Positions 25,730-46,436 of a DNA stretch of 54,817 bases are shown piece after piece (position 1 is the first letter of the stretch; each line of letters begins with the position of its first letter). This DNA comes from an uncultured Eubacteriales bacterium (GTDB lineage Bacteria; Bacillota; Clostridia; Oscillospirales; Oscillospiraceae). The notes under the pieces are model-generated. The model saw only the letters and a list, made by a program, of their open reading frames with translations, did not search any database and had not been told where the DNA came from. Location: positions 1 to 54,817 of the forward strand of contig CABRZO010000001.1 of NCBI GenBank assembly GCA_902475455.1, read 5' to 3'. The translations under genes and the position numbers were made by a program.

Positions 25730-26512
25730 TTAAATCACATCCATACCTTTATCCGCTGTCACTACGTTACCTGTGACGTTGCCCATAGCATCCGAACACA
25801 GGGTCAACACGATTTGAGCGACCTCTTCAGGGCGGCTGAATTTGGGCTTGGGCAACCCCGCCGGCGGCGCCATCTTTTCCCCGTTTTTCCCAAAGGAACG
25901 ATCCGCCATCCCGGTGCCCAGGGTGGGGCCGGGGCAGACCACATTGCAGCGAATGCCGAAATCCCGGTTTTCCACCGCTGCTACCTTGGTCAGCTGGATC
26001 ATCCCCGCCTTGGCGGGACCATAGGCCCCGAATCCCCCCAGGGGTTTGATGCCCGCGGTGGATGCGGTGTTGACAATGCAGCCGCTCCGCTGCTTCTGCA
26101 TTTGACGCAGTTCATACTTCATGCACAGGAAAACACCCTTCATGTCCACATCGGTAATCCAGTCCCAATCCCGCTCCGTGAATTCCGTCAGCGGCGCAAT
26201 GGGAATGGTCACCCCATCCGGGCCCACCCCGGCGTTATTGAAGGCAATGTCCACACTGCCAAAATGCTCCACCGCCGAGGCCACCATGGCCTCCACCTGG
26301 GTTTCCACTCGCACATCACACTGGATTCCTACGGCGCCCACCCCATAATCCTGCTCAATTTGCCGGGCAAGCTTCGCCGCTTTATCCATAATGGTAGAGG
26401 TGACAATGACAATGTTGGCCCCCTGCTCCGCAAATGCCAATGCCGTAGCCTTTCCGATTCCGGAGGCGCCTCCGGTGATGATGACTGTTTTGCCCTCAAA
26501 TTCCCGTTTCAT
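25730..26512 (-). CDS. short-chain dehydrogenase/reductase (SDR)
   Basis: TGGASGIGKA cofactor motif, NNAG, and the catalytic YGPAK (YxxxK). Confidence 0.9.
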   Translation of the reverse strand: MKREFEGKTVIITGGASGIGKATALAFAEQGANIVIVTSTIMDKAAKLARQIEQDYGVGAVGIQCDVRVETQVEAMVASAVEHFGSVDIAFNNAGVGPDGVTIPIAPLTEFTERDWDWITDVDMKGVFLCMKYELRQMQKQRSGCIVNTASTAGIKPLGGFGAYGPAKAGMIQLTKVAAVENRDFGIRCNVVCPGPTLGTGMADRSFGKNGEKMAPPAGLPKPKFSRPEEVAQIVLTLCSDAMGNVTGNVVTADKGMDVI

Positions 26513-26584
26513 CTGTTTCACCCTGCTTTCTATGTTCAGGTTGATTTTTACTCCAGCCCAGGAGGCCGGACGGTTTTCCGTTTC

Positions 26585-28774
26585 TTAGACGGAGGGATTA
26601 AAAAGCCAGTACGCCTTCAGCGCCGCGGTGGCGCCGTCGTAAATGGCGTGATATACCTTGGTGGGCTCCACACAGTCCCCTACCAGTTCAAAGGGGGTCG
26701 CTCCCGCCGCCGCCCGGAGTTCCTCCGTGGGATTGGATACCATGCCAAAGGCGTAAACAACCATATCTGCGTCAAAGGTGACCGGTCCATCGGGACCTTG
26801 GGCATAGACCTTTCCCTGTTCCACCCGTTCCACCCGGGTGGAGGGGAACTGCCGGATGGGATATTGCTGATACAGCCGGAACAAATCCATTTTATGGGAG
26901 TCTATGCCGCCAGGGGCCAGGGTGTCCATCATCTCCACCACCGAGACCTCTGCAGCGCCTCGGCAGGCGAAGTCAAACGCGGCCTCGCAGCCCGCCAGGC
27001 CACCGCCCAGCAAAACCACCCGCTTGCCCCGGGGGTCCATGGGATAGGCTTCCATCAGCAGGGTTGCCCACTGGGTCAGCCCGGGAACGGGCGGAACCCG
27101 CTGGGAGGAACCCACTGCGCAGATGATGAAATCCGGTGCAATCTCCCCAATCAATTCGGGGTCCACCCGGGTATTCAGCCGCACATCAATCCACCCCCGC
27201 TTGGCGATTCTGCGGATCAGGCGATCCTTAAACCGTTTCAGATCGTACTTGTGGGTGTCATAGTCGGCAAACCGGAAGATTCCGCCCAGGGCGTCGGTCT
27301 GTTCACACAAAACCACATCAAAGCCAATGTCCGCCGCAGTGATGGCCGCCTGCATACCCCCCATGCCTCCGCCGATGACCAGTATTTTCTTCATAACCCG
27401 GGTTCTGGGCAGGGAGCCGTCGGGCATCATATCCTTCCGGTCATAGTAGGGGTTGACGGAGCAGTAGTCCGGCCCCACCCCCATGGGGGGCGAATTCTCA
27501 AAGATCTCATAGAAGTTGGCGTCGGCGGGGATGGCCGGAGTAAAGGGTCCGCAAAAGACCCACTTGGGCCCCTTCCCCTCCTCCGGCGGCGCCGGGGGAC
27601 CGGGAGGAGGCGCCTCCTTCAACCCCAGGGCTTCCAGATCCCGTTTGCGCAGGGTGGGGGCCGAGCCGGCGCCACCCATGCAAATACCGCACCGGATGCA
27701 CTGGTTGATCTCGTCGGGCTGGCCGGCGGTGACCTTGTTGGGGAAGTTGGAGTCCGCCTTGTTCAGTTGGCGGCCCATGGCCACCAGATCCACCAGACCA
27801 TCGGCAATGATTTTCTCCGCGTCCCAGGGGTCCCGGATGCCCCCCACGATGCAGACGGGCACCTTGACCCGGCGCTTGATATAGGCGGCCTCCTCCAAAT
27901 TGGAAATGTTGGGCCGGTACATGCTAGGGTACATACCCGTGGCAAGGGGGCTGAAGGGACCGTCCATACAGTCGGTGGTGGGATCCCGGTAGATACCGGC
28001 GGAGACATGGATGATATCCACATAATCCTGGGCGCAGACGCAAAAATCTCCCACTTCCTCCAGGGGAATCCCCCCCTCACAGCGCTCGGACCCGGAAATC
28101 CGCATCTCCAGAATGAAATCTGAGCCCACAGCCTCCCGCACTGCCTTTAAAATCCGCAGGGGGAATCTGCGGCGATTTTCCGGACTGCCGCCGTATTCAT
28201 CCGTCCGGTGGTTGCTTCTGGGGGACAAAAACTGATGGGGCAGCCAGGAGTGGCCGAAATGCAGGTTGACGCCGTCAAATCCCGCCGCCTGCATATACTT
28301 GGCAGCGGTACACCAGCTCTGAATGGTATCGGCCATAATCTCCTCGGTCATGGCCAAAATTTCGGTGCCGTCAAAGGCCGTCATGGCCTCAGGGCCATAG
28401 CCGGGCCCCTGGCAGCCCAGACTCTTCTGGCGCAGATTGCCGGACTGGCACAGCTGCACCAGGGCCAGAGCGCCGTGGCTGTGAATCATGTCCGCGTGGC
28501 GCCGCCATTCCCGGAATTGACGGCTCTTCAGATTGGTATAATCCGTGGCGGGGGGAAAACCCGACTTGTTGCCGTAGGTAAAATTCACCTCTGTCTCGCC
28601 AATGCACACAGAGGCAGCGCCGCCGGCGGCTTTTTTCTCATAGATGCGATACTGATCCATGGGAAAGGCCCCGTCCGGCATAATCAGCCCTGCCAGCGCC
28701 GGCGAAGCCACCATGCGGTTTTTATAGGTCTTGCCCGCAATGGTGATGGGGCTCATCAGATGCTCAAAGCCCAT
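26585..28774 (-). CDS. Fe-S flavoenzyme of the 2,4-dienoyl-CoA reductase/2-enoate reductase type (OYE TIM barrel plus FAD/NAD(P) domain), with an insertion
   Basis: OYE-like half (HSHGALALVQL, HFGHSWLPHQFLSPRSNHRTDEYGGS) and Cys cluster CIRCGIC...C. Rossmann motifs VIGGGMGGMQAA and LLGGGLAGCEAA. RBS GAGGAGGG. Confidence 0.9.
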   Translation of the reverse strand: MGFEHLMSPITIAGKTYKNRMVASPALAGLIMPDGAFPMDQYRIYEKKAAGGAASVCIGETEVNFTYGNKSGFPPATDYTNLKSRQFREWRRHADMIHSHGALALVQLCQSGNLRQKSLGCQGPGYGPEAMTAFDGTEILAMTEEIMADTIQSWCTAAKYMQAAGFDGVNLHFGHSWLPHQFLSPRSNHRTDEYGGSPENRRRFPLRILKAVREAVGSDFILEMRISGSERCEGGIPLEEVGDFCVCAQDYVDIIHVSAGIYRDPTTDCMDGPFSPLATGMYPSMYRPNISNLEEAAYIKRRVKVPVCIVGGIRDPWDAEKIIADGLVDLVAMGRQLNKADSNFPNKVTAGQPDEINQCIRCGICMGGAGSAPTLRKRDLEALGLKEAPPPGPPAPPEEGKGPKWVFCGPFTPAIPADANFYEIFENSPPMGVGPDYCSVNPYYDRKDMMPDGSLPRTRVMKKILVIGGGMGGMQAAITAADIGFDVVLCEQTDALGGIFRFADYDTHKYDLKRFKDRLIRRIAKRGWIDVRLNTRVDPELIGEIAPDFIICAVGSSQRVPPVPGLTQWATLLMEAYPMDPRGKRVVLLGGGLAGCEAAFDFACRGAAEVSVVEMMDTLAPGGIDSHKMDLFRLYQQYPIRQFPSTRVERVEQGKVYAQGPDGPVTFDADMVVYAFGMVSNPTEELRAAAGATPFELVGDCVEPTKVYHAIYDGATAALKAYWLFNPSV

Positions 28775-28801
28775 AGAAAACCCTCCTCTGTGATCTCTCC
28801 A

Positions 28802-29875
28802 TTATCCCATGTCCCGATAAAACTCGTTGGTCGCCTCTACCGCCAGCGCCAAATACTTGGGGTCTGCCGGAATCTTGCGGTGGGCCACATCGTAAACGTA
28901 GGGATAGAGGAAGTCGTAGGTGGGCACGGGGACCCCCATTTCCTTGGCCTTGTCCACCACATAGCCCATGGTATGATGTCCCTCCATGGGCAACCGACGC
29001 TCCGGCACCAGCTTGCCGGCCAATTCCATGGGGTTGATGGTCCAGGCCATATCCCCCAACTCCTCCTTGCTTGGGGCGAACACACTGCTGCACCGCTCAA
29101 TCAGGGACTTCTCCTCTTCCGGGGTCTTGCAGCCGTTGACATAGCGGGGCCATTCCGAGAAGGGAATGCCGATGGCCTGCCGGGGATTGGCGCCGCAAGC
29201 CTGGGCCAGATGGTAATACTCTGTGGCGCACCGGGCAATGCAGATCTGCAAATTGCGATCCTCATAGGTTTCCAGCCCGGAGCTGTTTCTGGCGGGCATA
29301 CCCACCGCCATGCAGAGCTTTTCCCATCGGGCGGAGACAATGTCTGTGGACAGCTCCACCCGCTTGGCACAGGACAGAATCTGTTCCAGCTCCTTTAGGC
29401 GGGGGGTAATACTGCCATCCATCTCACCGATGACAAAGAAACCGTCGTGCGTGACCACCGTCCCCACCTCCGGGGTGCGGCCGCCGGCGAAACACACCAC
29501 CGGGATTACATTCTCCCGGCCCACCATGGGTACGATCACATCCTCGGGAATTCCGTTCTGGAACGAGGACCAGTAGGCGCCCGGGGCAGCGTGGGGCTTC
29601 ATTTTAGTCACAGCGTCGGCGGTAAAGTCGGCGCTGCCGGTGATCATGATGATATCAAAGAGATCCTGATCCCCCAGATCCTCCCAAAACGCCGCCTTGA
29701 CCGGGGTGGTGAATACCTGGTCATTAAACTTGACGGTAATTCCCTTCTGGGCAAACACCTCGGCAGCGGTACGGCGGAACTGAGACACCACCGTGACGTC
29801 ATGTCCCCCGTGGGACAAAAAGCCACCCACCAGATGACCAATGGTTCCGGTTCCCACTACTGCAATCTTTTTCAT
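28802..29875 (-). CDS. ketopantoate reductase (ApbA/PanE) family NAD(P)H oxidoreductase
   Basis: MKKIAVVGTGTIGHLVGG Rossmann N-terminus, FQNG, ARWEKL, and a C-terminal helical domain. RBS GAGGAGGA. The ORF track extension to 29968 was rejected. Confidence 0.8.
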   Translation of the reverse strand: MKKIAVVGTGTIGHLVGGFLSHGGHDVTVVSQFRRTAAEVFAQKGITVKFNDQVFTTPVKAAFWEDLGDQDLFDIIMITGSADFTADAVTKMKPHAAPGAYWSSFQNGIPEDVIVPMVGRENVIPVVCFAGGRTPEVGTVVTHDGFFVIGEMDGSITPRLKELEQILSCAKRVELSTDIVSARWEKLCMAVGMPARNSSGLETYEDRNLQICIARCATEYYHLAQACGANPRQAIGIPFSEWPRYVNGCKTPEEEKSLIERCSSVFAPSKEELGDMAWTINPMELAGKLVPERRLPMEGHHTMGYVVDKAKEMGVPVPTYDFLYPYVYDVAHRKIPADPKYLALAVEATNEFYRDMG

Positions 29876-29888
29876 CGCTGATTCCTCC

Positions 29889-31846
29889 TCAGTCAATCTG
29901 ATACATGGCCGCCTCCCAGCCGCTCCGGGTGGCATGTAAAATACGCCCAGCCTTGACGCAATCGCCAATCACAATGGTGTTGGGCACCAGTCCCCGCAGC
30001 GCGTCCACCGCGTCGGCACGGGGAACGACACCCATGGCCACAATGACCTGATCGCAGTCAAACTGATGCTCCGTCCCCTGGCTGTCCACCGCGGTAACCC
30101 GGTGCCCTTCAAAGCTGGTGCAGCGCAGGCCGGTACAAATCTCCACCGTGCTTTCCTGCAGCTCATGCAGCAGGGCGCCCCGGTGCATAAAGTTACAATC
30201 CACGGCCACCTCATCCCGCAGTTCAATCAGGGTGACCTGTTTGCCCTCCTGGGCCAGATGCAGCGCCGTTTCACAGCCGATGAGTCCGCCGCCGGCAATG
30301 ACAAACGTCTCACCTTGCAGCTGCCGCATCTGCTCCCAATCGGCGCCGAAGCGCACATAATCGGCGTCAATGCCGGGCAGGCCGGGTCTGAGGGGTTTGC
30401 CGCCCAGGGCCAGGATCAGGGTATCCGGCTGGATCTCCCGGACCAATTCCGGGGTAACCGGCGTATTCAGTCGCACCTCTACCCCCGCCGCCTTCAGTTG
30501 GCGGATCTTGGACTGGCAAAACAGGTTCAGCTTCCTCTTAAACTCCACCTGCTGGGCAAACTGGAGGGCTCCTCCCAAATGATCCTGGGCCTCGCACAAA
30601 ATGACCTGGTGGCCCCGATAAGCCGCGGTGATGGCGGCCTGCATGCCGCCGGGGCCGCCGCCGGCCACCAAAACCCGCCGGCTGGCCCGGGCCGGTTTCT
30701 CATAGAACCGCTCCAGCTCCCGGCCGGCGAAGGGATTGACGGCACAGCGCACCGTCCTGGTCTCCCCCATGCTGCCCTCACAGTCCAGGCAGCGCAGGCA
30801 GGGGGTGATCAGGTCCTCCCGGCCCTGGACCACCTTGCGGGGAAGATAGGGGTCGGCCACCAGTCCCCGGCCCAGGGCCACGGCATCGCAGACGCCATCC
30901 CGGATCAGCCGCTCCATAAGTTCCGGATCGTGGACGGCCCCCACCAGCACCACAGGGCACTGGACCGCCGCTTTGATCTGCCGGGCGTACTCCGCAAAGG
31001 GAGCGTCGGGGGAAAAGATGGGGGGATGCATCAGCACCGCGGAGTAAAAATCCTTTTGGGTACCGGCGGAGACGTGGAGCAGGTCCACCTTGCCGTCCAA
31101 CAGCTTGGCCATCTCCACCGCCGTATCGATGTCGTATCCGCCCTCCACCAACTCGGAGCCGCTCATACGGTACTCGATGGGAAATCCCTTTCCCACCGCC
31201 TGACGAACCCGGTCAATCACCATCAGGGGGAAGCGCATCCGGTTCTCCAGGCTGCCCCCGAATTCGTCCGTCCGGTGGTTGGACAGCGGAGAGACAAACT
31301 GGTGCAGCAGCCAGCCGTGGCCGCCGTGGATCTGCACCAGGTCAAAACCGCAGCGCTTGGCCCGTTCCGCCGCCTTGCCAAAGCAGTCGGCGATGCGTTC
31401 CATGTCCTCCACCGTCATGGAGCGGATAAAATCCCCCCATTCGTCCACGAACTCCGATGGGCCCATGGGCACGGTATGTTCCGCCAGGAATTCAGGGGCC
31501 GACAGCTCACCCCCGTGATCCAACTGCACCCCCGCCACCGCGCCTCCGGCGTGGATGGCATCGGCGGCACAGGTCAGGGAATAGACACTTCCCTCGTCAT
31601 CCATGGCCACCTGCATGGGGTGGCTTCTGCCGTCGGCTAGGTTGACGATGCAGTCGCCGATGGTGACCAGGCTGGCTCCTCCCAGCGCCCGCATCCGGTA
31701 ATAGGCGATGTTTTCCGCCGTCAGATACCCTTCCGGGGAAAGCTGGGCCTGGGAAGTGGGGCTGGACATAATCCGGTGTTTAAACGTCACATTGCCTACC
31801 TTCAGCGGAGACAACAGATTGGGAAATTTGCATCCTTCCATCTCAT
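29889..31846 (-). CDS. Fe-S flavoenzyme of the 2,4-dienoyl-CoA reductase/2-enoate reductase type
   Basis: IHGGHGWLLHQFVSPLSNHRTDEFGGS, the Cys motif CLRCLDC-x11-C, and Rossmann motifs VAGGGPGGMQAA and IAGGGLIGCETA. An alternative GTG start lies at 31850. Confidence 0.9.
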
Positions 31847-31853
31847 TCACCCT

Positions 31854-32660
31854 TTACTTGCCCCGCTCCTCCGGGTCAAACACCTGAATCACCCGATACC
31901 CGGTCCCTCTGGGCGGGATATAATGCTCCGTTTCCTCATAGCTGCGATACGCCTTGGGGCAGGAGGGCTCAAACTGCCTGAGCTGTACGGGATTGATGTC
32001 ATAATGGGTGGGGCCCGGAATCTGAATGTTTCTGGGGCTGTCCTGGCTCATCATGGGGCAGATAATCTGCCCGGTGGCCATCAGATGCCGGTATTCCTCC
32101 TGGGCGTAGTTTGTGCCGTCCAGCATCAGTGTAAATTCCTCGCCCACCATGTTGTGCAGCAGCCGCCACTCGCCGGTCTTGTCATCTCCGTCCTCAAAGA
32201 CCCAATCCTGGCCATAGCGCTCCCACATCACCATAAACATCATGTTTCCCTGGGGGGTGGAGGGCCGGCCCATCATGCCGGGGGTGACAAAGAAGGATCG
32301 GGCGCTCTTGCCGTCCTCCGCCACCTCAATGACGCTGGAGGCCAGATTGTGCACAGCGAAGCCGAAATAGTCGTCATTGTCCTCGATCTCCGGATACAGC
32401 TCCCGCATCAGGGGGAGCTCTGCGTCAGTCCCCTCATAGATGCCGGTACGCCACTCCACCTCACAGCGATCATATCCGATCAGGCAGCCAAACCCATGGG
32501 TGGCGCAGCAGTCCGGACGATGGGACCAGTTATAGGTGGAGGTATATCCAGGCCGGTCCTCAATGGCATGGTAAAACACATGGGTGGACCATTCGCACTC
32601 AATATCCAGGAAGGCCTCACAGGCGTGGATCTTTTGCTCCAAACTCAGGTCGTAATTCAT
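31854..32660 (-). CDS. NTF2/SnoaL-like protein, paralogue C (~268 aa)
   Basis: Shares ...AEDGKSARSFFVT... and ...GEWRLLHN... with paralogues A and B. Its ATG overlaps the B stop (ATGA). RBS GGGAGGG. Confidence 0.7.
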   Translation of the reverse strand: MNYDLSLEQKIHACEAFLDIECEWSTHVFYHAIEDRPGYTSTYNWSHRPDCCATHGFGCLIGYDRCEVEWRTGIYEGTDAELPLMRELYPEIEDNDDYFGFAVHNLASSVIEVAEDGKSARSFFVTPGMMGRPSTPQGNMMFMVMWERYGQDWVFEDGDDKTGEWRLLHNMVGEEFTLMLDGTNYAQEEYRHLMATGQIICPMMSQDSPRNIQIPGPTHYDINPVQLRQFEPSCPKAYRSYEETEHYIPPRGTGYRVIQVFDPEERGK

Positions 32661-33430
32661 TGACACTTCCCTCCCATCATCTCGTACAGGGATTTTACAT
32701 CTTTCTTGGCCAGCCGCCCGGCCCGGAACTTCAGACAGGCTTCCAGGCTGCAGCTCATGTCCAGGCTGTAGGAGTCGTGGGCGTCCGGAATCCGGGGGAA
32801 GGCGTACCAGCCGAACTGGGGGTTATAGGCCTCCAGCGGATAGTCGGGGGTTCCAAACTCCAACTGGGTGGGATTGACGGGATGCTCCACATCCTTTCTG
32901 GCCGCCGCGGGCCAGCCCATGACATTGACGGCGTTTTCCACCGTGAAGTCGTTGCCCTCAAAGACATGCCAGATTTTCCAATCGTCGCCCTCTTTTTTCA
33001 TGTCAAACCAGATCCGGTCATAAACATCGTAGCCCCGGGTCCCGGCCCCCATATCAATGGCCTCGCTGGCCAGACTGTAAATCAGGCAGAACGCGGTCTT
33101 GCCGTCTGCGGCAATCCGCACAATGTTGGTTCCGTTGGGCATGTGGAAGGAATAGTCCTTCTGATCTGCGGGGAAGGCCTTTTCATAGTGGGCCCGGATG
33201 CGATCCAGTCCCACATAGTAGCCCCAGTTGGCCCCCAGCTGGGCAGTGGCCTGATTTTCCGGCTGCTGTACCCAGAGGTTGTCCAGTTCACCTTGGCGAT
33301 CCTGATTGAATATGTACAGGCTCCGCCGGGCCAGCACCTGCTTGATGGACTCCCGCTCCCAGACGTTTTGAATCCGCTGCTCCGACGTGGCCTCCCGGCG
33401 ATAAAAATATCTTCCCATCATCTTGGGCAT
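32657..33430 (-). CDS. NTF2/SnoaL-like protein, paralogue B (257 aa)
   Basis: N-terminal helix WERESIKQVLARRSLYIF, plus AADGKTAFCLIYS and GDDWKIWHV. RBS GAGGAGG. Confidence 0.7.
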   Translation of the reverse strand: MPKMMGRYFYRREATSEQRIQNVWERESIKQVLARRSLYIFNQDRQGELDNLWVQQPENQATAQLGANWGYYVGLDRIRAHYEKAFPADQKDYSFHMPNGTNIVRIAADGKTAFCLIYSLASEAIDMGAGTRGYDVYDRIWFDMKKEGDDWKIWHVFEGNDFTVENAVNVMGWPAAARKDVEHPVNPTQLEFGTPDYPLEAYNPQFGWYAFPRIPDAHDSYSLDMSCSLEACLKFRAGRLAKKDVKSLYEMMGGKCQ

Positions 33431-33447
33431 AGTCTGTCAACCTCCTC

Positions 33448-34218
33448 TCAGAAATTCATACCGGCGCGTTTGTACTCCGGCATGTCGGGGCCGTAGCTGA
33501 AGGTGTCATCCCAGTCATAATAGGGCTCCGGCAGACGAATCTTTTCCTGCCGGGGGCGTCCGGGATAAAAGGCCTCATACACCTTACCCGGCTTGTTGGG
33601 CTCCGGCAGCGTCAGGCCCTCCAGCTGGGCAAACTCCGGCACCGGCTCCGGAAGCTGCCACGAATCCGCCCAGTTGACCTCCTGGGGGGCCCGGGTCTCC
33701 ACAATGCGCTGCATGTGCCAAATCCTCCAGTTGGTGCCTTCCTTGGTGAAGTCCACGGCGTAATAACCGTTTTCCTGGATGGTATAGGGGCCGTTGGCCA
33801 GAATCTCATGGATGGTGCTGTTAAACAGCCACACCCCCTTGGCTGTGGTGCCGTAGCCGGAGATCTCCAGGCAGGGGGGCGAAATGGCATCCACCTGCAT
33901 GGCGCCCACTCCGTGGAGCTTCTCCTGGGTTTTATCCCCCAGATATTCCGGGAACAGCTGCTGAATCAGCTGGGAACGCTTCTGGGTGTCCTCATATCTG
34001 GCCTTATAGTAGTTGCCCACCGCCTTCCGACCGGTGTACCATCCATCATTGGTGCCATAGCAGATATCGTCCTCAAACCGGCTCCAGAGTTCGTGCAGAA
34101 TGGTGTCCTCCTGCTTCATCTGGATGGCATAGACATACCGGCCCATGGTATTCTCAATTTCCCGCAGATCCAGAAAGGCGTCCGCCATCTGTTCCGCAGT
34201 ATAGTTCTGTTTATACAT
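33448..34218 (-). CDS. NTF2/SnoaL-like protein, paralogue A (256 aa)
   Basis: LDLREIENTMGRYVYAI, GTTAKGVWLFNS and GTNWRIWHMQRI show the SnoaL_4-like pattern. It also carries a Pro-rich C-terminal extension. Confidence 0.75.
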   Translation of the reverse strand: MYKQNYTAEQMADAFLDLREIENTMGRYVYAIQMKQEDTILHELWSRFEDDICYGTNDGWYTGRKAVGNYYKARYEDTQKRSQLIQQLFPEYLGDKTQEKLHGVGAMQVDAISPPCLEISGYGTTAKGVWLFNSTIHEILANGPYTIQENGYYAVDFTKEGTNWRIWHMQRIVETRAPQEVNWADSWQLPEPVPEFAQLEGLTLPEPNKPGKVYEAFYPGRPRQEKIRLPEPYYDWDDTFSYGPDMPEYKRAGMNF

Positions 34219-34237
34219 GCCGCTTTCCTCCTGTCAA

Positions 34238-35062
34238 TCAGCTGATGGAGACCACCTCGGACCCGGAAATAAACCGTTCTCCGTCATAGGTCATAAAGAA
34301 GTCCTCCACAATATCGGAAATGAAGATTCGCGCCCGCATCTCTTCCTTTTTGCCGGGCTTTTCATCGTTGTTGTAGTGGAAGAAATAGGAGCCCTTCCAC
34401 TTCTTTCCGTCCGAGGTCTCATACTCCACCGCGTCGGGCACGTCCGCGTAGGGCACGTCCGCCTGCTTGGGACCGGGCACAAACCAGGCCCGGGGCTTCT
34501 GGCCCACCGGACCGCCGGCGGGGCCCATTTCCTTGCCGCCACAGGCAAATTTGCCCACCATATCCACATCATAATTGCTCAGATACACCTGGAGCATCCC
34601 CAGTGTGCCGATGCACTCCCGGGTGCCGTAAAAGCCTCCGCCATAGGTGGTGAACACGATACCCAAGGGACGGTTGTTCTCCTTGCAGTAAATGCCGGGG
34701 TAAGGGGCGCCCTTCCTGCGCCAGCGGCCGCCCAGAGATTGGGTCACCGCCTCCGGGTTGACCTGTCCGCCTTCCATCTCCTTTTTCAGGTCTTCCTGAA
34801 GATTTCCGTCGCCGTTCAGGCCCATGGCGTCCGCCACCGGCTTCAGGGGCGCGCCGGCCACAATGGGGCTGCCCAGGCAGATGATGTCGTAATCGTCGAA
34901 ATAGATTTTCCCTTCCAGGGCCGCCCAGTCCATTTTTAAAGTCAGTCGCACCATCTGGACATCCCAGTTGTAATATTCAAAGGTCTCTTTAAACCAATTG
35001 GCCACTTTTTCCGTGTTCTTGGTCATGGTGGCATACAGAATCAATGCCCGTCTGCGTTTCAT
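34238..35062 (-). CDS. flavodoxin-fold protein with a C-terminal extension
   Basis: The N-terminus ALILYATMTKNTEKVA...IICLGSPIVAG is typical of a flavodoxin-like FMN site. Length 274 aa. Confidence 0.65.
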   Translation of the reverse strand: MKRRRALILYATMTKNTEKVANWFKETFEYYNWDVQMVRLTLKMDWAALEGKIYFDDYDIICLGSPIVAGAPLKPVADAMGLNGDGNLQEDLKKEMEGGQVNPEAVTQSLGGRWRRKGAPYPGIYCKENNRPLGIVFTTYGGGFYGTRECIGTLGMLQVYLSNYDVDMVGKFACGGKEMGPAGGPVGQKPRAWFVPGPKQADVPYADVPDAVEYETSDGKKWKGSYFFHYNNDEKPGKKEEMRARIFISDIVEDFFMTYDGERFISGSEVVSIS

Positions 35063-35074
35063 AATGATTCTCCT

Positions 35075-36055
35075 TTATTCCTCGTTGGGTTCGGTGGGGG
35101 CAGTCGTAGCGCCCTCCACCCGGTGGCAGGCCACCAGATGGCCCGGGCACGCCTCACGCAGCTCCGGCTCCTGGGCGAAGCACTGCTCCGTGGCGAACCG
35201 GCAGCGGGGCGCAAACCGGCAGCACTTGGGCGGATTGACCGGGGAGGTGAGCTCTCCCTGGAGCAAAATGCGCTCCGGCCGGTTCTCCAGCCGGGGAACC
35301 GGAATGGAGGACAGCAGCGCCTGGGAATAGGGGTGCAGCGTATTCCGGAACAGCTCTGCCGAGGCGCATTTCTCAACCACTTGTCCCAGGTACATCACGC
35401 AGATCTCATTGGAGATATGGCGTACCACCGACAGATCGTGTGTAATGAACAGATACGTCAGCTTTTTCTCCTCCTGCAGATCCTGCAGCAGGTTGAGCAC
35501 CTGGGCCTGAATGGAAACATCCAGCGCAGACACCGGTTCGTCACAGACAATGAACTTGGGCTCCAGAGCCAGGGCCCGGGCGATGCCGATCCGCTGCCGG
35601 CGCCCGCCGTCCAGCTCATGGGGGTAGGCCTGGGCAAACCGCTCCGCCAGTCCCACCGTGTCCATCAATTCCTTGACCCTGCGGTTGGTCTCCTCCTTGC
35701 TCTTGGTCAGTTTATAGATGGCCAGGGGCTCCGCGATCAGCTGACTGACCGACATTCTGGGGTCCAGAGAGGCAAAGGGATCCTGAAAGATCATCTGCAT
35801 CTCAGTGCGCAGATGCTTGAACTGCTTGGGTTTGATCCCGGTAATCTCTGTTCCGTTAAACCAGACCTCACCGGAGGAGGGTTCCGTCAGCCGAAGGATG
35901 CTTTTCCCCAGGGTGGATTTACCGCATCCAGACTCACCCACAATACCCATGGTCTCCCCCACGTCCACAGAAAACGAAACATCATCCACCGCGTGGAGAA
36001 CACCATCGGCAGTGGGAAAATACTTCTTCAGATGCTTTACTTCCAGCAGTTTCAT
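35075..36055 (-). CDS. Opp/Dpp-type ABC transporter ATP-binding protein (OppF-like)
   Basis: Walker [10 protein letters not shown], signature LDGGRRQRI, Walker [13 protein letters not shown], and a Cys-containing C-terminal oligopeptide-transporter domain. Its ATG overlaps the OppD-like stop (ATGA). Confidence 0.9.
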
Positions 36056-37035
36056 TCCGGTACCTCCTTGCCCGGGCCAAAGTGCAGGCACTTGACAAAA
36101 TGTCCCGGCTCCACTTCCGTCAGAATGGGATCGCAACGCTTGCACTGATCCACGCACTGCTCACACCGGTCACTGAAGCTGCACCAGGGGGGCAGATCCA
36201 TGGGGTTTGCCATCAACCCCTTGATGGGCTTCAGCCGTCTCATCTCCCGCTCCAGGTCGGGCAGGGAGTCAAAGAGCCCTTTGGTATAGGGGTGCAGCGG
36301 GTTGTGGAAGATCCGCTCGGTGGTGCCGTATTCCACAATCTCTCCGGCGTAGATCACCGCGCACTTGTCGCACATCTCCGCCACCACGCCAAAATCGTGG
36401 GTGATTAGCAGCATGGAGGTGTTGAACTGGCTGCGCAGCTGTTTCATTAGTTCCAGCACCTGGGCCTGGATGGTCACATCCAGGGCGGTGGTGGGCTCGT
36501 CGGCAATCAGCAGCGCCGGGTTGCAGGCCAGGGCAATGGCAATGACCACTCGCTGCTTCATACCGCCGGAAAACTGATGGGGGTACTCTCCGGCTCGCTG
36601 GGGAGCAATGCCCACTGTCTCCAGCATCTGCCGGGCCCGCTCCATACTCTCACTTTTAGAGCAATCCGAGTGAAGTGCAATCATCTCGGCAATCTGGTCT
36701 CCCACCGTCAGCACCGGATTTAGCGCGGTCATGGGATCCTGAAAGATCATGGAGATTCGGCCTCCCCGCAGGGCCCGAAGGGATGCGTCCTCCATTTTCA
36801 TGACATCTTCGCCCTCAAACAGGATTTCGCCGTCAATGATCTTGCCTGGGGGATTGGGGACCAGCCTCAGGATACCCAGGGCGGTGGTGGTCTTGCCCGC
36901 TCCGGTCTCTCCCACCAGTCCCAGGGTCTCTCCCTTCTCCAGGGACAGGGAGACATCGTTGACCGCCCGCACGGTGCCGGCACGGGTGACGTAATGGATG
37001 GTCAGATTTTTGATTTCTAATTCTTTCATATCCAT
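36052..37035 (-). CDS. Opp/Dpp-type ABC transporter ATP-binding protein (OppD-like)
   Basis: Walker [10 protein letters not shown], signature FSGGMKQRV, and Walker [18 protein letters not shown] overlap with the upstream permease. Confidence 0.9.
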
Positions 37036-37934
37036 TACTCCTTCAGCTTGGGATCCATGGCGTCCCGGAGGCCGTCACCGAACATATTGAATCCGAACAT
37101 GGTCAGCATAATGGCAAGGCCCGGGAAGGTGATCAGCGGATAGAATTGCCGGATAAACTCCCGGCCGGAGTTCAGCATAGACCCCCATTCCGGGGTGGGG
37201 GGCTGTACGCCCAGCCCGATGAAACTCAGGCCGGAGATCATCATAATGTTGCCTCCCAACCGCAGGGTGCAGTCTACAATGATGGGGGCCAGACAGTTGG
37301 GAATCACGTGGGACAGAATGACCCGCAGATTCCGGGAGCCGCAGGCCCGGGCGGCCTCAATATACTCCTCTCCCCGAATGCTGAGGGAGGTGGCCCGCAT
37401 CATACGACAGCTGGGGGCAATGCCGCCCACTGCCACCGCAACGGCGGTCTGCCAGATGCCGTTGCCCAGCATGGAGGAGACACAGATGGCCAGCAAGGTA
37501 CCGGGAATAGCCATCAGCATGTCCATGAAGCGCATGATGACCGTGTCTACCTTGCCTCCGAAGTAGCCGGAGACGGCGCCGATCAGGCCGCCCACCACCA
37601 CGGAGCACACCACCGCCATCAGGGAGACCAGCAACGAGATGCGGCCGCCGTAGATGATTCGGCTCAGGATGTCCCGGCCATAGTTGTCGGTGCCCAGAGG
37701 ATGGGCCAGGCAGGGATAGAGCAGGCGCTGTGTTGGGTTCTGCATGTTGATGTCATAGGGGGCGATCCAGTCTGCGAAGATGGCGCAAATGATCAACAGC
37801 AGCACGATGGCCATACCCACCATGGCCAGCTTGTTGGTCTTGAGCCGGTCCCAGATCTCCAGCAGCTGGCTGCGCTTTTTCAGGCTGCCCTGGGACAGCG
37901 TCTGGTCCTGTCTGTCTTTTGGTACGGCGGTCAT
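37035..37934 (-). CDS. Opp/Dpp-type ABC transporter permease (OppC-like)
   Basis: Six-TM permease with the EAA-loop region [24 protein letters not shown]. Confidence 0.9.
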
Positions 37935-38914
37935 GCCTTCGCCTCCTCTCCTTCGGTCTGGGTCTTTTTACGGCGCTTGCCGGCGCCGGCGAACTGAGCC
38001 TTGATCCGCGGGTCAATGGCGGCATAGGCCAGGTCCACCAGCAGGTTCATACAGCACACGAACACAGCGATGACCAGCGTAATCCCCATGATCGTGGGAT
38101 AGTCCCGATTGTTGATACCGGTCACCATCAGGGAGCCGATGCCGGGAATATTGAAAATACTCTCGATGATGACGTTTCCGCCGATGACCATGGAAATCTG
38201 TCCGCCGATCATGGTAATCACCGGAATTAGCGCATTTTTCAGGGCGTGCTTACGGATGATGGCCATCTCCCGCAGGCCCTTGGCCCGGGCAGTGCGGATA
38301 TAGTCCTGACGGATGACCTCCAGCAGACTGGAGCGGGTCATGCGGGTGGTACCGGCCAGACTCATCATGCCGCTGGCCGCCACCGGCAAAACATAATGCA
38401 GCGGCGTACTCAGTCCGCTGGCTGGCAGCAGGTTCAGCTTGATGCTGAACACCACAATGCCCATCAGTGCCAGCCAAAACCCCGGAATGGAGGCCAGCAC
38501 CACCGCCAGAATGGACACGGTATAGTCCAGGGCAGTCTTCTGTTTGATGGCGGAGATAATGCCGAAGGGGATGCCCAGCACCACGGTGACGCAGACGCTG
38601 AGGACACCCAGCTGGATGGTTACCCCAACCCGTTCAGCGATGGTGGCGGATACCGCCCGGTTGGTCATATAGGAGGTGCCCAGATCCAGCCTGGTCACCA
38701 CCCCCCAGATGTACTGGCCCAGCTGAATCAGATAGGGCTGATCCAGACCCATCTCATGTTCCACCTGATCGTACTGTTCCTGGGTATAGTTGTCCGGCAG
38801 CTGGTTGAGCACCGGATCGCCCGGCATCAGATAGCTGAGCGAAAAGACAATAATCAGCACGCCCAACAGCACCGGAATCATCTGCAGCAGGCGCTTGATG
38901 ATGTATTTGATCAT
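37931..38914 (-). CDS. Opp/Dpp-type ABC transporter permease (OppB-like)
   Basis: MIKYIIKRLLQMIPVLLGV N-terminus and EAA loop DYIRTARAKGLREMAIIRKHALKN. RBS AAAGGAGAG. The ORF track extension to 38986 was rejected. Confidence 0.9.
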   Translation of the reverse strand: MIKYIIKRLLQMIPVLLGVLIIVFSLSYLMPGDPVLNQLPDNYTQEQYDQVEHEMGLDQPYLIQLGQYIWGVVTRLDLGTSYMTNRAVSATIAERVGVTIQLGVLSVCVTVVLGIPFGIISAIKQKTALDYTVSILAVVLASIPGFWLALMGIVVFSIKLNLLPASGLSTPLHYVLPVAASGMMSLAGTTRMTRSSLLEVIRQDYIRTARAKGLREMAIIRKHALKNALIPVITMIGGQISMVIGGNVIIESIFNIPGIGSLMVTGINNRDYPTIMGITLVIAVFVCCMNLLVDLAYAAIDPRIKAQFAGAGKRRKKTQTEGEEAKA

Positions 38915-39000
38915 AGACTTTCTCTCCTTTTCGCGGTTCGCCGCCCCCCTCCCCCGCCCGGGGACCGGGGAGGGGGCGGCTGCCATGCGCCGGAATGGGA

Positions 39001-40626
39001 TCAGCCCACTACGGTAATGTCCCGCAGAGAGGGAGAACCGGTGATGGGAATGTCACAGGTGCCGATCCGGCTGTTGTAGGCGTAGGCGGTGCTCCACTGG
39101 CCCACCGGGATCATGCTGTAGTGATCGTAGAAGTAATCCTGCACATCACTGTAAATCTGGGCCCGCTCCGCATCGTCAGTGGTGCTGCGGCCCGCCTCCA
39201 GCAGATCCACAATTTCGGGATCAGTCTGAGCAGTGCACTGGTAGGAGAAGTTGCCCCGGAAGAAGGTATACACGTCCGCTGCCTCATTGGTGGCGGTGGC
39301 GATGGCAGCACCGTTGATAAACAGGTCGGTGCCGTTGGGCTGGGACCAGTAGTCGGCCACGGCGGTGGACTGATCGTAGGTCTCAATCTCCACATTGACG
39401 CCGATCTCCTGCATGTAGTACTGGAAGGACTCGGCAATGGTGGTGGAGGTGGTAGCCGTATTGGTCACGAAGGTCAGGGTTGGGTTGTCAATGCCGCATT
39501 CCGCCACCAGCTGCTTGGCTGTCTCCGGGTCATACTCGTAGGAATGGCCGTCCACATAGTAGGGGTTGGACTCGTTCAGGGTTGAGGTGGAGGGGGTGGC
39601 CAGAATGCCCCAGGTCAGGTCGGCGATGGCCGCAGCATCGGTGCCGATGCAAATAGCCTCGCGGAGCTTTTCATTCTGCAGATCCTGGTTCTGGGGACTC
39701 AGCACAATCACCGCCGAGGCGTTGGAGCTGACGGGGACATAGGTGCCCATGCTGGGATCGGCGGAGATCTCTTCACAGTCGTTGGCAGTGAGGTTGATAG
39801 CCACGTCGATGACCCCGTTGATGTAGTCGGCCATCATGGTGGTGTTGTCGGTATACCGATAGCAGGTGATCTCCTGGACCGAGGCGGAGTCGCCGGCCTC
39901 GTCGGCCATCCACCAGTCGTCCCGCTTTTCAAATGTGATGGACACGTCGGTAATGCTCTCCTTCACCGTATAGGGGCCGGAGCCGCACACCGAATCCTTG
40001 GAGAACCAGTCGGCGTTCTCCCCCAGAGCTTCCACAAAGTCCTTGTTCATTACAAAGATATTGAGGCCGGACTGCCAGGGGCCGTAGGGCTGATTGTACT
40101 GGAGGTACAGGGTCATGCCATCCTCGGAAACAGAGCTGGCGTCAAAGTCCACCACGGTGAAGTTGGTGCCGCCCCGGGAGGACTGGGCAAAGCGCTGCAT
40201 GGAGTAGAGCACATCCTCCATGGTCATCTGATCCCCGTTGGAGAAATAGATACCGTCCTTCAGCTCCAGAACCAGCTGATTTTCCACCTCCTCGGACCAG
40301 TAGTAGTCGCTGAGAATGTCGGAATACCACTGGCCGTCGGAGCCGATGCTGAACAACTGGTCATAGAGCAGGTAGGTGGCCGCGGTGGAGCACTCGGTGC
40401 TGAAGTACTGGCTGGCATCAAAATGGCCCAGGAACTGCTGGGCCGTGGAGCCCACTGCAATGGCGGCATCGGTCTGAACTGTCTGGGCCGAACTGCCGGC
40501 GGAGCCGCTGGTGGTGGAGGTACCGGAGGCAGAGGTACTGCCGTTGCCGCAGGCCGCCAGCCCGAATACCATGGACGCCGCCAGGGCCAGCCCGGCCAGC
40601 CGTCTGAAGATACCGTGTTGTTTCAT
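39001..40626 (-). CDS. ABC transporter substrate-binding lipoprotein, family 5 (peptide/nickel/opine type)
   Basis: Signal peptide with the lipobox LAAC, a Ser/Thr/Gly linker, and 541 aa typical of family-5 binding proteins. RBS AGAGGAGGAA. Confidence 0.88.
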   Translation of the reverse strand: MKQHGIFRRLAGLALAASMVFGLAACGNGSTSASGTSTTSGSAGSSAQTVQTDAAIAVGSTAQQFLGHFDASQYFSTECSTAATYLLYDQLFSIGSDGQWYSDILSDYYWSEEVENQLVLELKDGIYFSNGDQMTMEDVLYSMQRFAQSSRGGTNFTVVDFDASSVSEDGMTLYLQYNQPYGPWQSGLNIFVMNKDFVEALGENADWFSKDSVCGSGPYTVKESITDVSITFEKRDDWWMADEAGDSASVQEITCYRYTDNTTMMADYINGVIDVAINLTANDCEEISADPSMGTYVPVSSNASAVIVLSPQNQDLQNEKLREAICIGTDAAAIADLTWGILATPSTSTLNESNPYYVDGHSYEYDPETAKQLVAECGIDNPTLTFVTNTATTSTTIAESFQYYMQEIGVNVEIETYDQSTAVADYWSQPNGTDLFINGAAIATATNEAADVYTFFRGNFSYQCTAQTDPEIVDLLEAGRSTTDDAERAQIYSDVQDYFYDHYSMIPVGQWSTAYAYNSRIGTCDIPITGSPSLRDITVVG

Positions 40627-40795: not shown

Positions 40796-41029
40796 GGTGG
40801 AAAAACTGACCTGGCTGCCAAATCCTGCAGTGTTCCGTTTTTGAGGAGGTTGAAGGTCTGAACAGAGGCGGCAAAAAAGGCGGAGAATCTGACTGTGACA
40901 TTCTGAAGTCCACCCTCATATGTGACATCCGTCATACAATTCAGCTGTTTTATTCTGCTTTTTTCGATTTTTCACACCATTTCGTTCACTTTTTACAGCG
41001 GTTTTTTGTGGCCTAAATTCCGGGATTTC

Positions 41030-41059
41030 TTGAAAAAGTCCTGGGGGCTGCGCTATAAT
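41030..41059 (+). promoter_or_regulatory. candidate promoter for the AraC-family gene (TTGAAA-18-TATAAT)
   Basis: TTGAAA at 41030-41035 and TATAAT at 41054-41059. Confidence 0.45.
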
Positions 41060-41110
41060 AATTACAATCGAATTTTGGCGAAAAAGCTGCGCTGGAGGCG
41101 AGATTCCCCC

Positions 41111-42679
41111 ATGAAATCCCATAAAAATCTGCTCTGTTCTCTCTTCCTGCTCTCCCTGCTCTGCTTTTTGGCCGCGGGCACCATACTACTGGCCACGGTG
41201 TCCTCTCTCTCCGGCCCGGGCCGGGCCCTGGTGCTGCTGCTGCTCTCCCTGGCGGAGGCAGGCGGACTGGCGGCGCTGGGATACCGGGTGTTTTTTTCCT
41301 TCCGGCGCTCCGCCCAGTTGCTGCCCCGGGAGCTCTGCGCCCGGCTGGAGGACCAGCCGGTCACCGACCAGTTCCATCTGCTCTGCCAATCCTACGCTCA
41401 AAAACACGAGGACCTGAGATTCATGAGTGCAGACCGATTGCTCACCCATCTGTTGGAGGACAACACCCACACCCACGTCATTGAAAATCTGCGTCAACAG
41501 CTTCAGGACATCCTGCACAGCGAGATCTTTGGCTTCCGCTGGACCAGCTACTGCTTGATCTATGTCCGTCTGGAGGACTATGAATCCTACATGCTGAAAA
41601 CCTGTGACGGCCACTTCTTCTTTGAGGACTTCCGCCGGATGTACGAGGTGGTCAGCCACACCTTCTCCACCATGCTAAATCAGCGCAACATTGCCTTCGG
41701 CGTGGAGCGGAAAAACGCCTGTGTCTTTCTGGTCAATCTGGCCAACACCGGAGAGGACACCCCCCGATCCGAGCTGGAGAAGATCCTGGACGGCCTGTAC
41801 CACGGCTGTGAGGACATGGTACGCACCATCGGAGAGAGCTTTAATGTGACTCTGGAGGTGGTGCTCTCCACCCCCTTCCAGGATGTCACCGAGACCTACA
41901 GCATCTATGAGTGGATGCTCACCATGAAGGAGTACTGTGACTTTGTGGCCGGTCCCCGGCCGGTGCTGGGGCCTCAGGACTGCCAGCAGTTTCTTGCCGC
42001 CCCCCACGCCCTATCCTCTCCCACGGAAAAGACCTATTACAGCGCGCTGCTGGCGGAGGATTTTGTCAAGGCGGAACAGGCCCTCTACGAGATGGAACTG
42101 TACGTCCTGGCCAACAACGGCTGCAATGTGCCCGCCCTCAAGAGCGTGATGCGGCTGTGCCTCAGCGCTGCCGAGGACATCGCCACCTCCAACACCTTCT
42201 CCTCCAAGAGCATCCTCTCCCTGGACTGGCGCACCGCCATTCAGAAAGCCGAGACCCAGCAGCAGCTGGAGGAGGTCATTCACTCCTTTTTTGACTATCT
42301 CATCAGCCGCTCCGGCAAGCGCCGCAGCGAGTGCTCCAGCACCACCCAGAAGATCACCGCCTTTCTGGATGAACACTATACCTGCCCCGACCTGTCCGTC
42401 ACCATGCTCTCCGACGCCCTCTCCCTGAGCCCCTCCTATATCTCCCGGATTTTCAAACGGGAGGTTGGCATCAACGTGCCCGACTACATCCACGAAAAGC
42501 GGGTACGCCGGGCCAAGGAGCTGCTGTCCACCACGGATCTCCCCCTCAACGATGTGGCCCTGCAGGTGGGCTACTCTACCGCTTGGACCATGAACCGTAT
42601 TTTCAAGCGGATAGTCCACATGACCCCCGGCGCCTGGCGCCAGGTGGCCCAATCCAACCAGGAGGAAAACCAACCATGA
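41111..42679 (+). CDS. membrane-anchored AraC family transcriptional regulator
   Basis: Two N-terminal hydrophobic helices (LLCSLFLLSLLCFLAAGTILLATV and ALVLLLLSLAEAGGLAALGY), a large central domain, and a C-terminal double-HTH (LSPSYISRIFKREVG...VALQVGYSTAWTMNRIFKR). The start at 41111 follows GGAGG. The low-GC upstream extension in the ORF track was rejected. Confidence 0.85.
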   Translation: MKSHKNLLCSLFLLSLLCFLAAGTILLATVSSLSGPGRALVLLLLSLAEAGGLAALGYRVFFSFRRSAQLLPRELCARLEDQPVTDQFHLLCQSYAQKHEDLRFMSADRLLTHLLEDNTHTHVIENLRQQLQDILHSEIFGFRWTSYCLIYVRLEDYESYMLKTCDGHFFFEDFRRMYEVVSHTFSTMLNQRNIAFGVERKNACVFLVNLANTGEDTPRSELEKILDGLYHGCEDMVRTIGESFNVTLEVVLSTPFQDVTETYSIYEWMLTMKEYCDFVAGPRPVLGPQDCQQFLAAPHALSSPTEKTYYSALLAEDFVKAEQALYEMELYVLANNGCNVPALKSVMRLCLSAAEDIATSNTFSSKSILSLDWRTAIQKAETQQQLEEVIHSFFDYLISRSGKRRSECSSTTQKITAFLDEHYTCPDLSVTMLSDALSLSPSYISRIFKREVGINVPDYIHEKRVRRAKELLSTTDLPLNDVALQVGYSTAWTMNRIFKRIVHMTPGAWRQVAQSNQEENQP

Positions 42680-45689: not shown

Positions 45690-45741
45690 TGTGGCACGCT
45701 CCTTTATACATGGGTTCCTGGGCGGCAAAACCGCCGGTGCG

Positions 45742-46335
45742 TTATCGTTTCCGCCGGTTTTTCAGCGGACCCCAGGCGGGGCCGGCCCCGCCCGGGCGCA
45801 GGTTTTGATGGTCCCGACGGAACTTGTCCCGCTCCTGGCGCATCTGCTCCCGCTCATACTGTCGGGCCAGTTTCCGGGTATTCTGATACCACTGGAAGAT
45901 CCATTGCTCCTGCTCCGGCGTAAGTTGGCGCAGCGGAATCAGATTGCCGCTGGCACTGTCGTTATAGAGGAATAGGCAGTCTTTTGTCCTGTGCAGCTTG
46001 ACGGTCCCCCGCCAATCAACACTGACCTCCTGCTGGCCGTTTTTGACCCGCCAGCGCAGCCCGTCAAAGTGGTATTCCACCGGGTCTACCTGTTCCAGCT
46101 GCCCCTTATAGTTCAGTCGGGTCATCAGCTCATAGGCTGCCACAGCCATTAAAAACACCAGCACCGGGCCCACAAAGGCCGCAGCGCTGACATTGCCGGT
46201 GGCCAGCATAATGACCCCGCAGATGACAACCATGGCCGCCGCCAGGATCAGATACAGCCTTTTGGCGTTTTCCCGGCACGCCTGCAGATATTCCCGGCGG
46301 GTAATGCCGGTGACAGTGATGGTAAACGAATCCAT
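45742..46335 (-). CDS. YcxB-like membrane protein
   Basis: Two central TM helices followed by a PH-like C-terminal region (LFLYNDSASGNLIPLRQL), typical of the YcxB family, and a basic tail. Confidence 0.6.
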   Translation of the reverse strand: MDSFTITVTGITRREYLQACRENAKRLYLILAAAMVVICGVIMLATGNVSAAAFVGPVLVFLMAVAAYELMTRLNYKGQLEQVDPVEYHFDGLRWRVKNGQQEVSVDWRGTVKLHRTKDCLFLYNDSASGNLIPLRQLTPEQEQWIFQWYQNTRKLARQYEREQMRQERDKFRRDHQNLRPGGAGPAWGPLKNRRKR

Positions 46336-46374
46336 AAACGGCTCCCTTCAGTTCTGGCCCAGGCCAGTGGAAAG

Positions 46375-46402
46375 CAGGGGGACAGCGGATGCTGTCCCCC
46401 TG
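46375..46402 (-). terminator. palindromic hairpin after the TRAP binding-protein gene
   Basis: cagggggacagc-ggat-gctgtccccctg. Its stem sequence is the same as the hairpin at 1131-1156. The U-tract on the minus strand is weak. Confidence 0.5.
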
Positions 46403-46436
46403 TCAAAGTGCGGTGGTCAGGGGAACTCCCGATCTG

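Follow-up and report, generated by a model that had tools for sequence, protein, structure and literature searches.

Conserved triplets of LdpA-like SnoaL_4 paralogues in uncultured Oscillospiraceae: a candidate heterotrimeric lyase beside BaiCD-like flavin reductases

The described enzymes closest to the proteins reported here are LdpA and its homologue PcfL, which in sphingomonads act as deformylating lyases on diarylpropanes and phenylcoumarans (PDB 8ABT-8ABW; PMC9942872, PMC12997858). The reaction typical of the LdpA-type diarylpropane lyases turns erythro-DGPD into lignostilbene by deformylation. LdpA is a cofactor-free lyase of the NTF2 family, about 250 amino acids (aa) long, that dehydrates and deformylates a lignin β-1 dimer through a quinone methide, forms a homotrimer stabilised by an extended C-terminal arm and depends on His97/Asp40, Glu143, Tyr35 and Tyr147 (NaLdpA numbering; PMC9942872). 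We analysed a stretch of 54,817 nucleotides (nt) from an uncultured Eubacteriales bacterium of the Oscillospiraceae (contig CABRZO010000001.1 of assembly GCA_902475455.1, positions 1 to 54,817; the window), in which three consecutive minus-strand genes encode two SnoaL_4/NTF2-like proteins with a C-terminal arm, A (256 aa, 34218..33448) and B (257 aa, 33430..32657), and a divergent NTF2-like protein, C (32660..31854; 268 aa from its ATG, or 270 aa from a GTG two codons upstream). The original prediction, made from the DNA sequence alone, had proposed that these are divergent NTF2/SnoaL-like paralogues forming an obligate hetero-oligomer, perhaps served by the flavodoxin-fold protein encoded just upstream (F, 274 aa, 35062..34238, minus strand). 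We propose, at a probability of roughly 0.55, that A, B and C form a heterotrimeric lyase or dehydratase of which C is the catalytic subunit and which feeds the adjacent BaiCD-like flavin reductases.

Searches of the PDB with the single sequences of A, B, C or F gave no significant match, and searches with profiles of the A, B and C families returned LdpA as their only significant match (E-values of 5.1e-8 for A, 6.4e-7 for C and 9.5e-5 for B). LdpA was also the best structural match of the model of C, with which it shares the NTF2 cone followed by a C-terminal arm, a length near 250 aa and the catalytic His, Glu and Tyr. However, LdpA is a homotrimer encoded by one gene, whereas the window has three paralogues that are about 23% identical, of which two lack the catalytic set; the equivalents of LdpA Tyr165 and Gln170 are not conserved in C, which has a histidine cluster; and LdpA occurs in aerobic sphingomonads with stilbene dioxygenases as partners, in contrast to the anaerobic gut and rumen Oscillospiraceae with their flavin reductases. 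The long format that had drawn attention to the three genes, about 260 aa with a C-terminal extension, is real but not unprecedented, since LdpA carries such an arm within its approximately 250 aa.

BaiE, the 7-alpha-dehydratase of bile acids (PDB 4LEH, 4N3V, 4L8O), is likewise a SnoaL_4 protein of gut Clostridia, to which the model of C could be superposed with a TM score of 0.70 (normalised to BaiE), and is an NTF2 dehydratase encoded beside BaiCD/BaiH-type reductases and a short-chain dehydrogenase/reductase (SDR). It differs in being the product of a single gene, about 167 aa long and devoid of a C-terminal arm, and the window operon differs in having no coenzyme A (CoA) ligase or CoA transferase genes and reductases that score far below the BaiCD cut-off. 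None of the BaiE chains in the PDB was matched by A, B or C, as single sequences or as family profiles, and the likeness is at the level of fold only. LinA and scytalone dehydratase, eliminases with a His-centred acid-base pair, are also fold-level matches of the model of C, yet they are single-gene homotrimers of about 150-170 aa and resemble none of A, B and C in sequence. Like these two, BaiE is a trimer. Adjacent paralogues of the NTF2/ketosteroid-isomerase fold, one of them catalytically impaired, are found in phenazine biosynthesis, where the inactive copy of the PhzA/PhzB pair partners the active one; unlike A, B and C, these are two closely similar subunits of a dimeric fold class that serve a biosynthetic condensation in an unrelated lineage. 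Full-text literature searches found no description of the A-B-C triplet. Precedents exist for the fold, for the elimination chemistry and for a pairing with bai-type reductases; new are the conserved architecture of three paralogues, in which we are inclined to see a single catalytic subunit, and the spread of the family in uncultured Oscillospiraceae.

The sizes, motifs and spacing on which the original prediction was built were all verified in the sequence. The N-terminal helix motifs LDLREIENTMGRYVYAI and WERESIKQVLARRSLYIF are present, as are the central strand motifs of A, B and C (GTTAKGVWLFNS, DGKTAFCLIYS and DGKSARSFFVT, respectively) and the trio NWRIWH, DWKIWH and EWRLLH in the same order, with A and B separated by 17 nt and B and C sharing an ATGA overlap. 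Support for the claim that the three are divergent paralogues was weak by pairwise BLASTP (E-values of 6e-5 for A/B, 2e-3 for A/C and 2e-4 for B/C, at 22-23% identity) but became decisive by profile alignment: the hidden Markov models (HMMs) of the A, B and C families match one another over their whole length, and hhalign aligned the B family with the C family over 229 columns, the C-terminal extension among them, with a probability of 99.6% (E = 1.7e-23). This arm, of about 90 aa, is homologous among A, B and C and carries the common motif P-x-P-Y-x-T.

The predicted NTF2/SnoaL-like fold was also borne out. Against a cut-off of 24 bits, the Pfam SnoaL_4 model (PF13577) scored 32.6 bits with B and 23.6 bits, slightly too low, with A, and had no match in window C itself; among family members, it was matched by 63 of 64 for A (E ≤ 1e-3) and by 31 of 60 for C. 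Comparison of the three proteins with the NCBIfam families gave no match at E ≤ 1. The AlphaFold model of C (mean predicted local distance difference test, pLDDT, 82.7; predicted template-modelling score, pTM, 0.82; 35-sequence alignment) consists of helices at residues 7-33 and 63-95 followed by five long strands, the helix-helix-sheet arrangement of the cone, and its Foldseek matches at ranks 1 to 45 were all of the NTF2 fold, led by LdpA (E = 1.5e-5), BaiE and LinA and including scytalone dehydratase. In our judgement it is scarcely in doubt that the three proteins are SnoaL_4 paralogues of the LdpA-like kind and make up a conserved module.

The GTDB representatives, one genome for each species, were scanned for relatives of B, which turned up in 222 stretches, nearly all in uncultured Oscillospiraceae/Clostridia bins from the human gut (including that of the Hadza), the deer rumen and other ruminants, and frequently at several loci per genome. 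Typical triplets were also present in bins labelled Bacteroides sp. CAG:927, Barnesiella intestinihominis, Flexilinea sp. and Bacteroidaceae ('cleanbin' isolates), the oddly labelled loci being L017, L025, L051, L052, L069, L070, L073, L078, L080 and L085; these names seem at odds with a distribution otherwise confined to Oscillospiraceae, and errors in the binning or labelling of the assemblies may explain them. The C profile matched 897 cluster representatives at E ≤ 1e-3 and 474 at E ≤ 1e-10 among 1.84 billion; the C family is small and lineage-restricted.

All open reading frames (ORFs) of 90 such loci were sorted by iteratively built HMMs into 115 of type A, 102 of type B, 96 of type C and nine of type F. 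They make up 93 A-B-C triplets, always in this order and on a single strand, with successive genes mostly overlapping by 4 nt or spaced by 12-19 nt, in agreement with the co-conservation that the proposed hetero-oligomer had implied. Surplus A-like genes belong to truncated triplets or to a distinct single-gene LdpA-like group described below, and lone B or C ORFs lie at contig ends, except for one B-C pair, which in L056 comes immediately behind a full triplet. Distance matrices of the three families over 87 distinct triplets were strongly correlated (r = 0.91-0.93, against a maximum of 0.145 after shuffling) and the nearest neighbour was the same in all three families for 65 of the 87, indicating that the module duplicates and diverges as a unit.

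A search of the representative library also revealed a natural fusion of A and B. The 499-aa protein P0299 (L093:1455-2954, plus strand) consists of an A-like domain (261 bits) followed by a B-like domain (224 bits), lacks about the last 12 residues of the A arm and is followed by a C gene (L093:2951-3688) that overlaps it by 4 nt. A further two-domain protein, P0340, joins a C-like to an A-like domain. A 499-aa B (L055) and C proteins of about 510-530 aa were considered as additional fusions and rejected, their length being due to over-extension of the start codon or to an extra C-terminal domain. The C proteins of one subgroup (L055:7763-9367, L056:10724-12304, L057, L073, L074, L080 and L089) are extended at the C-terminus by about 250 aa that match no Pfam family, and the C encoded at L047:10705-12123 has a cupin domain fused to it (PF07883, E = 1.8e-9).

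The catalytic columns of LdpA were mapped by aligning SpLdpA to each family with hmmalign. At the column of SpLdpA His93, C has an invariant histidine (H104, 89 of 89), B has histidine in 76 of 94 sequences (81%; window B has M97 with H96 adjacent) and A has Lys, Arg or Asp. The Glu139 column is occupied by glutamate in 88 of the 89 C sequences (E147), is variable in B and is Thr, Ile or Glu in A (E149 in the window), while Tyr143 corresponds to an invariant tyrosine in C (Y149, 89/89), to Ile, Val or Leu in B and to Phe or Tyr in A. Within motif II of SpLdpA, a Glu-Tyr-Gln triad peculiar to LdpA (Glu139/Tyr161/Gln166), C keeps the Glu in 88/89 sequences, its Tyr161 column is Val in 89/89 and its Gln166 column is variable; A and B have lost the motif II Glu. 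For Asp36, which with His93 makes up the motif I dyad of SpLdpA, the alignment of C in helix 1 was unreliable; C has E21, H27 and H31 in this helix, and these are invariant or nearly so together with H55, R121, R148, D152 and E156. Since C alone keeps the His, Glu and Tyr of LdpA, it is the candidate catalytic subunit.

A fourth LdpA-like SnoaL_4 group, encoded by single genes for proteins of about 241-276 aa, was encountered in some of the surveyed loci (L006:4198-5016 on the plus strand, L023, L025, L034, L035, L042, L043, L054 and L070) and frequently directly precedes a flavin reductase gene. In many of its members, unlike in A, the residues at LdpA positions 31, 93, 139 and 143 are still Tyr, His, acidic and Tyr, respectively, and judged by these residues the group looks like an ordinary homomeric LdpA-type enzyme.

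Because of the synteny and translational coupling of the three genes, their co-divergence, the A-B fusion, the unequal retention of catalytic residues and the trimeric state of the relatives, we consider that A, B and C probably assemble into a heteromer; slightly less firmly, the residue pattern points to C as its sole or main catalytic subunit. Several observations weigh against this picture. Neighbouring genes of an operon co-diverge even when their products make no contact, so that co-divergence is weak evidence on its own, and 87 triplets are too few for an analysis of inter-protein covariation. The A-B fusion was present on two contigs only, B often keeps the catalytic histidine, and A and B equal C in their degree of conservation and have invariant polar residues of their own (N23 and N57 in A; R22, E27, N68 and H155 in B), so that they could have separate activities. 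The absence of conserved equivalents of Tyr161 and Gln166 from C suggests that its chemistry may differ from that of LdpA.

The same equal conservation, with family-specific invariant polar residues in each protein, would be expected if A, B and C were three separate homotrimers carrying out successive steps or acting on different stereo- or regioisomers, in the manner of the paired stereospecific enzymes of lignin-dimer degradation. The characterised relatives LdpA, PcfL and BaiE are single-gene homo-oligomers, and stereo-complementary sets of paralogues are common in the catabolism of aromatic dimers. We regard this explanation as unlikely, however, given that A lacks the LdpA-type catalytic set and B lacks the Glu and Tyr, all of which stand-alone relatives in the same loci retain. 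A fixed order in a 1:1:1 ratio with 4-nt overlaps across 93 triplets would moreover be unusual for independent enzymes, no lone B or C was seen (contig ends and the L056 pair aside), and an A-B fusion exists.

The proposed A-B-C heterotrimer would be built like the homotrimers of LdpA, BaiE, LinA and scytalone dehydratase, each subunit contributing a cone domain and an arm of about 90 aa with which it would hold on to the adjacent subunit, as LdpA does. C would supply the acid-base residues His104, Glu147 and Tyr149 as well as the C-specific histidine cluster His27, His31 and His55, and A and B would be degenerate paralogues retained for assembly and perhaps for substrate binding. In the pocket of C, Y149, perhaps with H27, might hold a phenolate or enolate oxygen while E147 and H104, as acid and base, expel a hydroxyl or related leaving group without a cofactor. 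The substrate would be an activated compound, phenolic or enone-type, and the product a quinone methide or a conjugated enone, as for LdpA and BaiE. The BaiCD/BaiH-like reductases could then reduce the elimination product, giving a net reductive dehydroxylation or cleavage, and the SDR and ApbA-like reductase of the operon could interconvert alcohol and ketone, by which the substrate would be activated and then restored, the part that BaiA plays in the bai pathway.

Two flavin reductases follow C in the window, one of 650 aa beginning 12 nt past C (31841..29889, minus strand; PF00724 at 5.9e-66 and PF07992 at 3.2e-30) and one of 729 aa (26585..28774, minus strand; PF00724 at 7.3e-50 and PF07992 at 8.6e-24). 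Both combine the flavin mononucleotide (FMN) domain of Old Yellow Enzyme (Oxidored_FMN, PF00724) with a flavin adenine dinucleotide (FAD)/NAD(P)H domain (Pyr_redox_2, PF07992), the organisation of the BaiCD/BaiH/2,4-dienoyl-CoA reductases, and reached 424 bits (650-aa protein) and 345 bits with the NCBIfam BaiCD model (cut-off 825). The 729-aa protein has an insertion of about 70 residues rich in Pro and Gly (…PPPGPPAPPEEGKGPK…) between the FMN and FAD domains, which its 650-aa paralogue lacks. Assignment of the operon as a BaiE, bilirubin-reductase (BilR) or mycofactocin-reductase system was considered and rejected, as the scores lie far under the equivalog cut-offs and CoA ligase and CoA transferase genes are absent.

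Of the 87 triplets, 35 had a gene for a BaiCD-type flavin reductase within 6 kb; among the 32 whose flanks were complete, the number was 15. Thus only about 40-47% of triplets have such a neighbour and the coupling is not universal, a further point against the proposal as a whole; we see the balance of evidence for a coupling in which elimination is followed by reduction as even. Loci L003-L005 contain the triplet and a transporter with no reductase.

Opp-type importers and AraC or LysR regulators are frequent beside the triplets, a setting that, with the reductase-free L003-L005, would also suit a non-enzymatic assembly that binds or sequesters a ligand, such as a cytoplasmic carrier or sensor for an imported compound, and many NTF2-like proteins are non-catalytic binders. 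We nevertheless hold such a role to be very improbable, as C keeps the His, Glu and Tyr essential to LdpA in 88-89 of 89 sequences, the closest structural matches are all enzymes and redox enzymes are frequent neighbours.

The flavodoxin fold attributed to F, three α/β/α layers around a parallel sheet, was supported by an AlphaFold model (pLDDT 88.5) whose Foldseek matches were WrbA, flavodoxins and the flavodoxin domains of flavodiiron proteins (E-values from 2e-6, probability 1.0), besides a flavone reductase. By sequence, F belongs to a family without a Pfam model and resembles flavodoxins only weakly and over its N-terminal 60-80 residues or so, scoring below the curated cut-offs (13.7 bits with PF00258, cut-off 25; 12-25 bits with NCBIfam flavodoxin models, cut-offs 123-138). 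It contains a phosphate-loop-like segment, Y10-A-T-M-T-K-N-T17 (the FMN phosphate loop of flavodoxins being T/S-x-T-G-x-T), with Y10, M13, N16 and T17 invariant in 50 homologues. A kinship with flavone reductase (PDB 7D38, Foldseek rank 5) was rejected, as a profile search gave no match to 7D38.

Its fold and loop motif, together with its position 19 nt upstream of A, shared by the closest relatives of the window (L001, L002, L009, L010, L012 and L013), are what would be expected of an obligate redox partner in a four-component complex. However, F is near only 7 of the 87 distinct triplets and LdpA-type chemistry is cofactor-free. A search for the F family returned 281 matches, at least 120 of them at 47% or higher identity to window F, and A-B-C were absent from the three other contexts examined. 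In one, from a complete genome (L090:7001-11244), an F homologue follows a LysR gene and precedes a 468-aa dehydratase of the hot-dog fold (FAS1_DH_region) and a flavin reductase, a layout of dehydratase then reductase like that of the window triplet and its reductase; in another (L091:7001-11363), an F homologue follows an Opp importer and precedes another flavodoxin-like protein, a 135-aa protein of no known family and a flavin reductase; in L092 the F homologue is alone. The homologues in L090 and L091 are 54-55% identical to window F. The earlier suggestion that F serves the triplet was thus not supported as a general rule, and an obligate four-component complex appears quite improbable: F is an accessory of reductase-containing cassettes and no core partner of A-B-C, and it is probably an FMN protein accompanying such cassettes in this lineage.

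The triplet and its reductases belong to 13 closely packed minus-strand genes (window 40626..25730), spaced from a 4-nt overlap to 63 nt, in the order Opp/Dpp importer (five genes), F, A, B, C, 650-aa reductase, ApbA-like reductase, 729-aa reductase and SDR. A GGAGG-type ribosome-binding site precedes each of F, A, B and C, and a scan for promoters and terminators gave counts no higher than those of shuffled controls. The ATP-binding cassette importer of the Opp/Dpp type, directly upstream of F (35075..40626, minus strand), comprises a family-5 solute-binding protein (PF00496, 2.6e-49), two permeases and two ATPases, the permease and ATPase labels being taken from the window ORFs and from the Pfam labels of homologous genes in L001 and L009. 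Between the two flavin reductases lies the gene for an ApbA/PanE-like NAD(P)H ketoreductase (357 aa, 28802..29875, minus strand; PF02558 at 1.1e-16, with PF08546), and the last gene of the operon encodes the SDR (263 aa, 25730..26521, minus strand; PF13561 at 2.4e-55).

Divergent from the operon is the gene for an AraC-family regulator of 585 aa (40922..42679, plus strand; PF12833 at 1.3e-21, residues 496-574), whose long N-terminus has no Pfam match and opens with the hydrophobic stretch MTSVIQFSCFILLFSIFHTISFTFYSGFLW, which suggests a membrane-anchored sensor. Just beyond it, at positions 43650-47618 (minus strand), lie the genes for another two-domain flavin reductase, the third noted here and 692 aa long, for a YcxB-like protein and for a solute-binding protein of the TRAP type (DctP), which may be a second locus for uptake and reduction. 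An 873-aa bifunctional aldehyde/alcohol dehydrogenase of the AdhE type (18494-21115, plus strand) fits a fermentative anaerobe.

The kinship with LdpA, the multiplication of the loci and their enrichment in fibre-fed guts and the rumen make plant phenolic dimers or steroids the candidate substrates. In a more speculative form, which we put forward as tentative and think rather doubtful, A, B and C would be an obligate heterotrimer whose single catalytic site, in C, is a histidine-rich version of that of LdpA, and which serves as the dehydratase or lyase half of a cofactor-light 'eliminate-then-reduce' system. This system would have multiplied in the uncultured Oscillospiraceae of gut and rumen into several substrate-specific loci per genome and would serve, in the absence of oxygen, to take hydroxyl or ether groups off steroids or plant phenolics, the latter including lignans, neolignans and lignin-derived dimers.

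If the proposal is true, three paralogues joined in a heterotrimer of which one subunit is active would give the NTF2 fold an architecture new to it, its textbook trimeric eliminases being single-gene homotrimers, and would be a clean case of duplication followed by the loss of catalysis in subunits that are still retained. In the more speculative form, the system would also be an anaerobic counterpart of the lignin-dimer pathways of sphingomonads and of the bai pathway. The 222 places with relatives of B constitute a sizeable set of uncharacterised catabolic loci, in a lineage of which it is poorly understood how plant phenolics and steroids are metabolised, and the A-B-C loci offer concrete genes for expression and screening.

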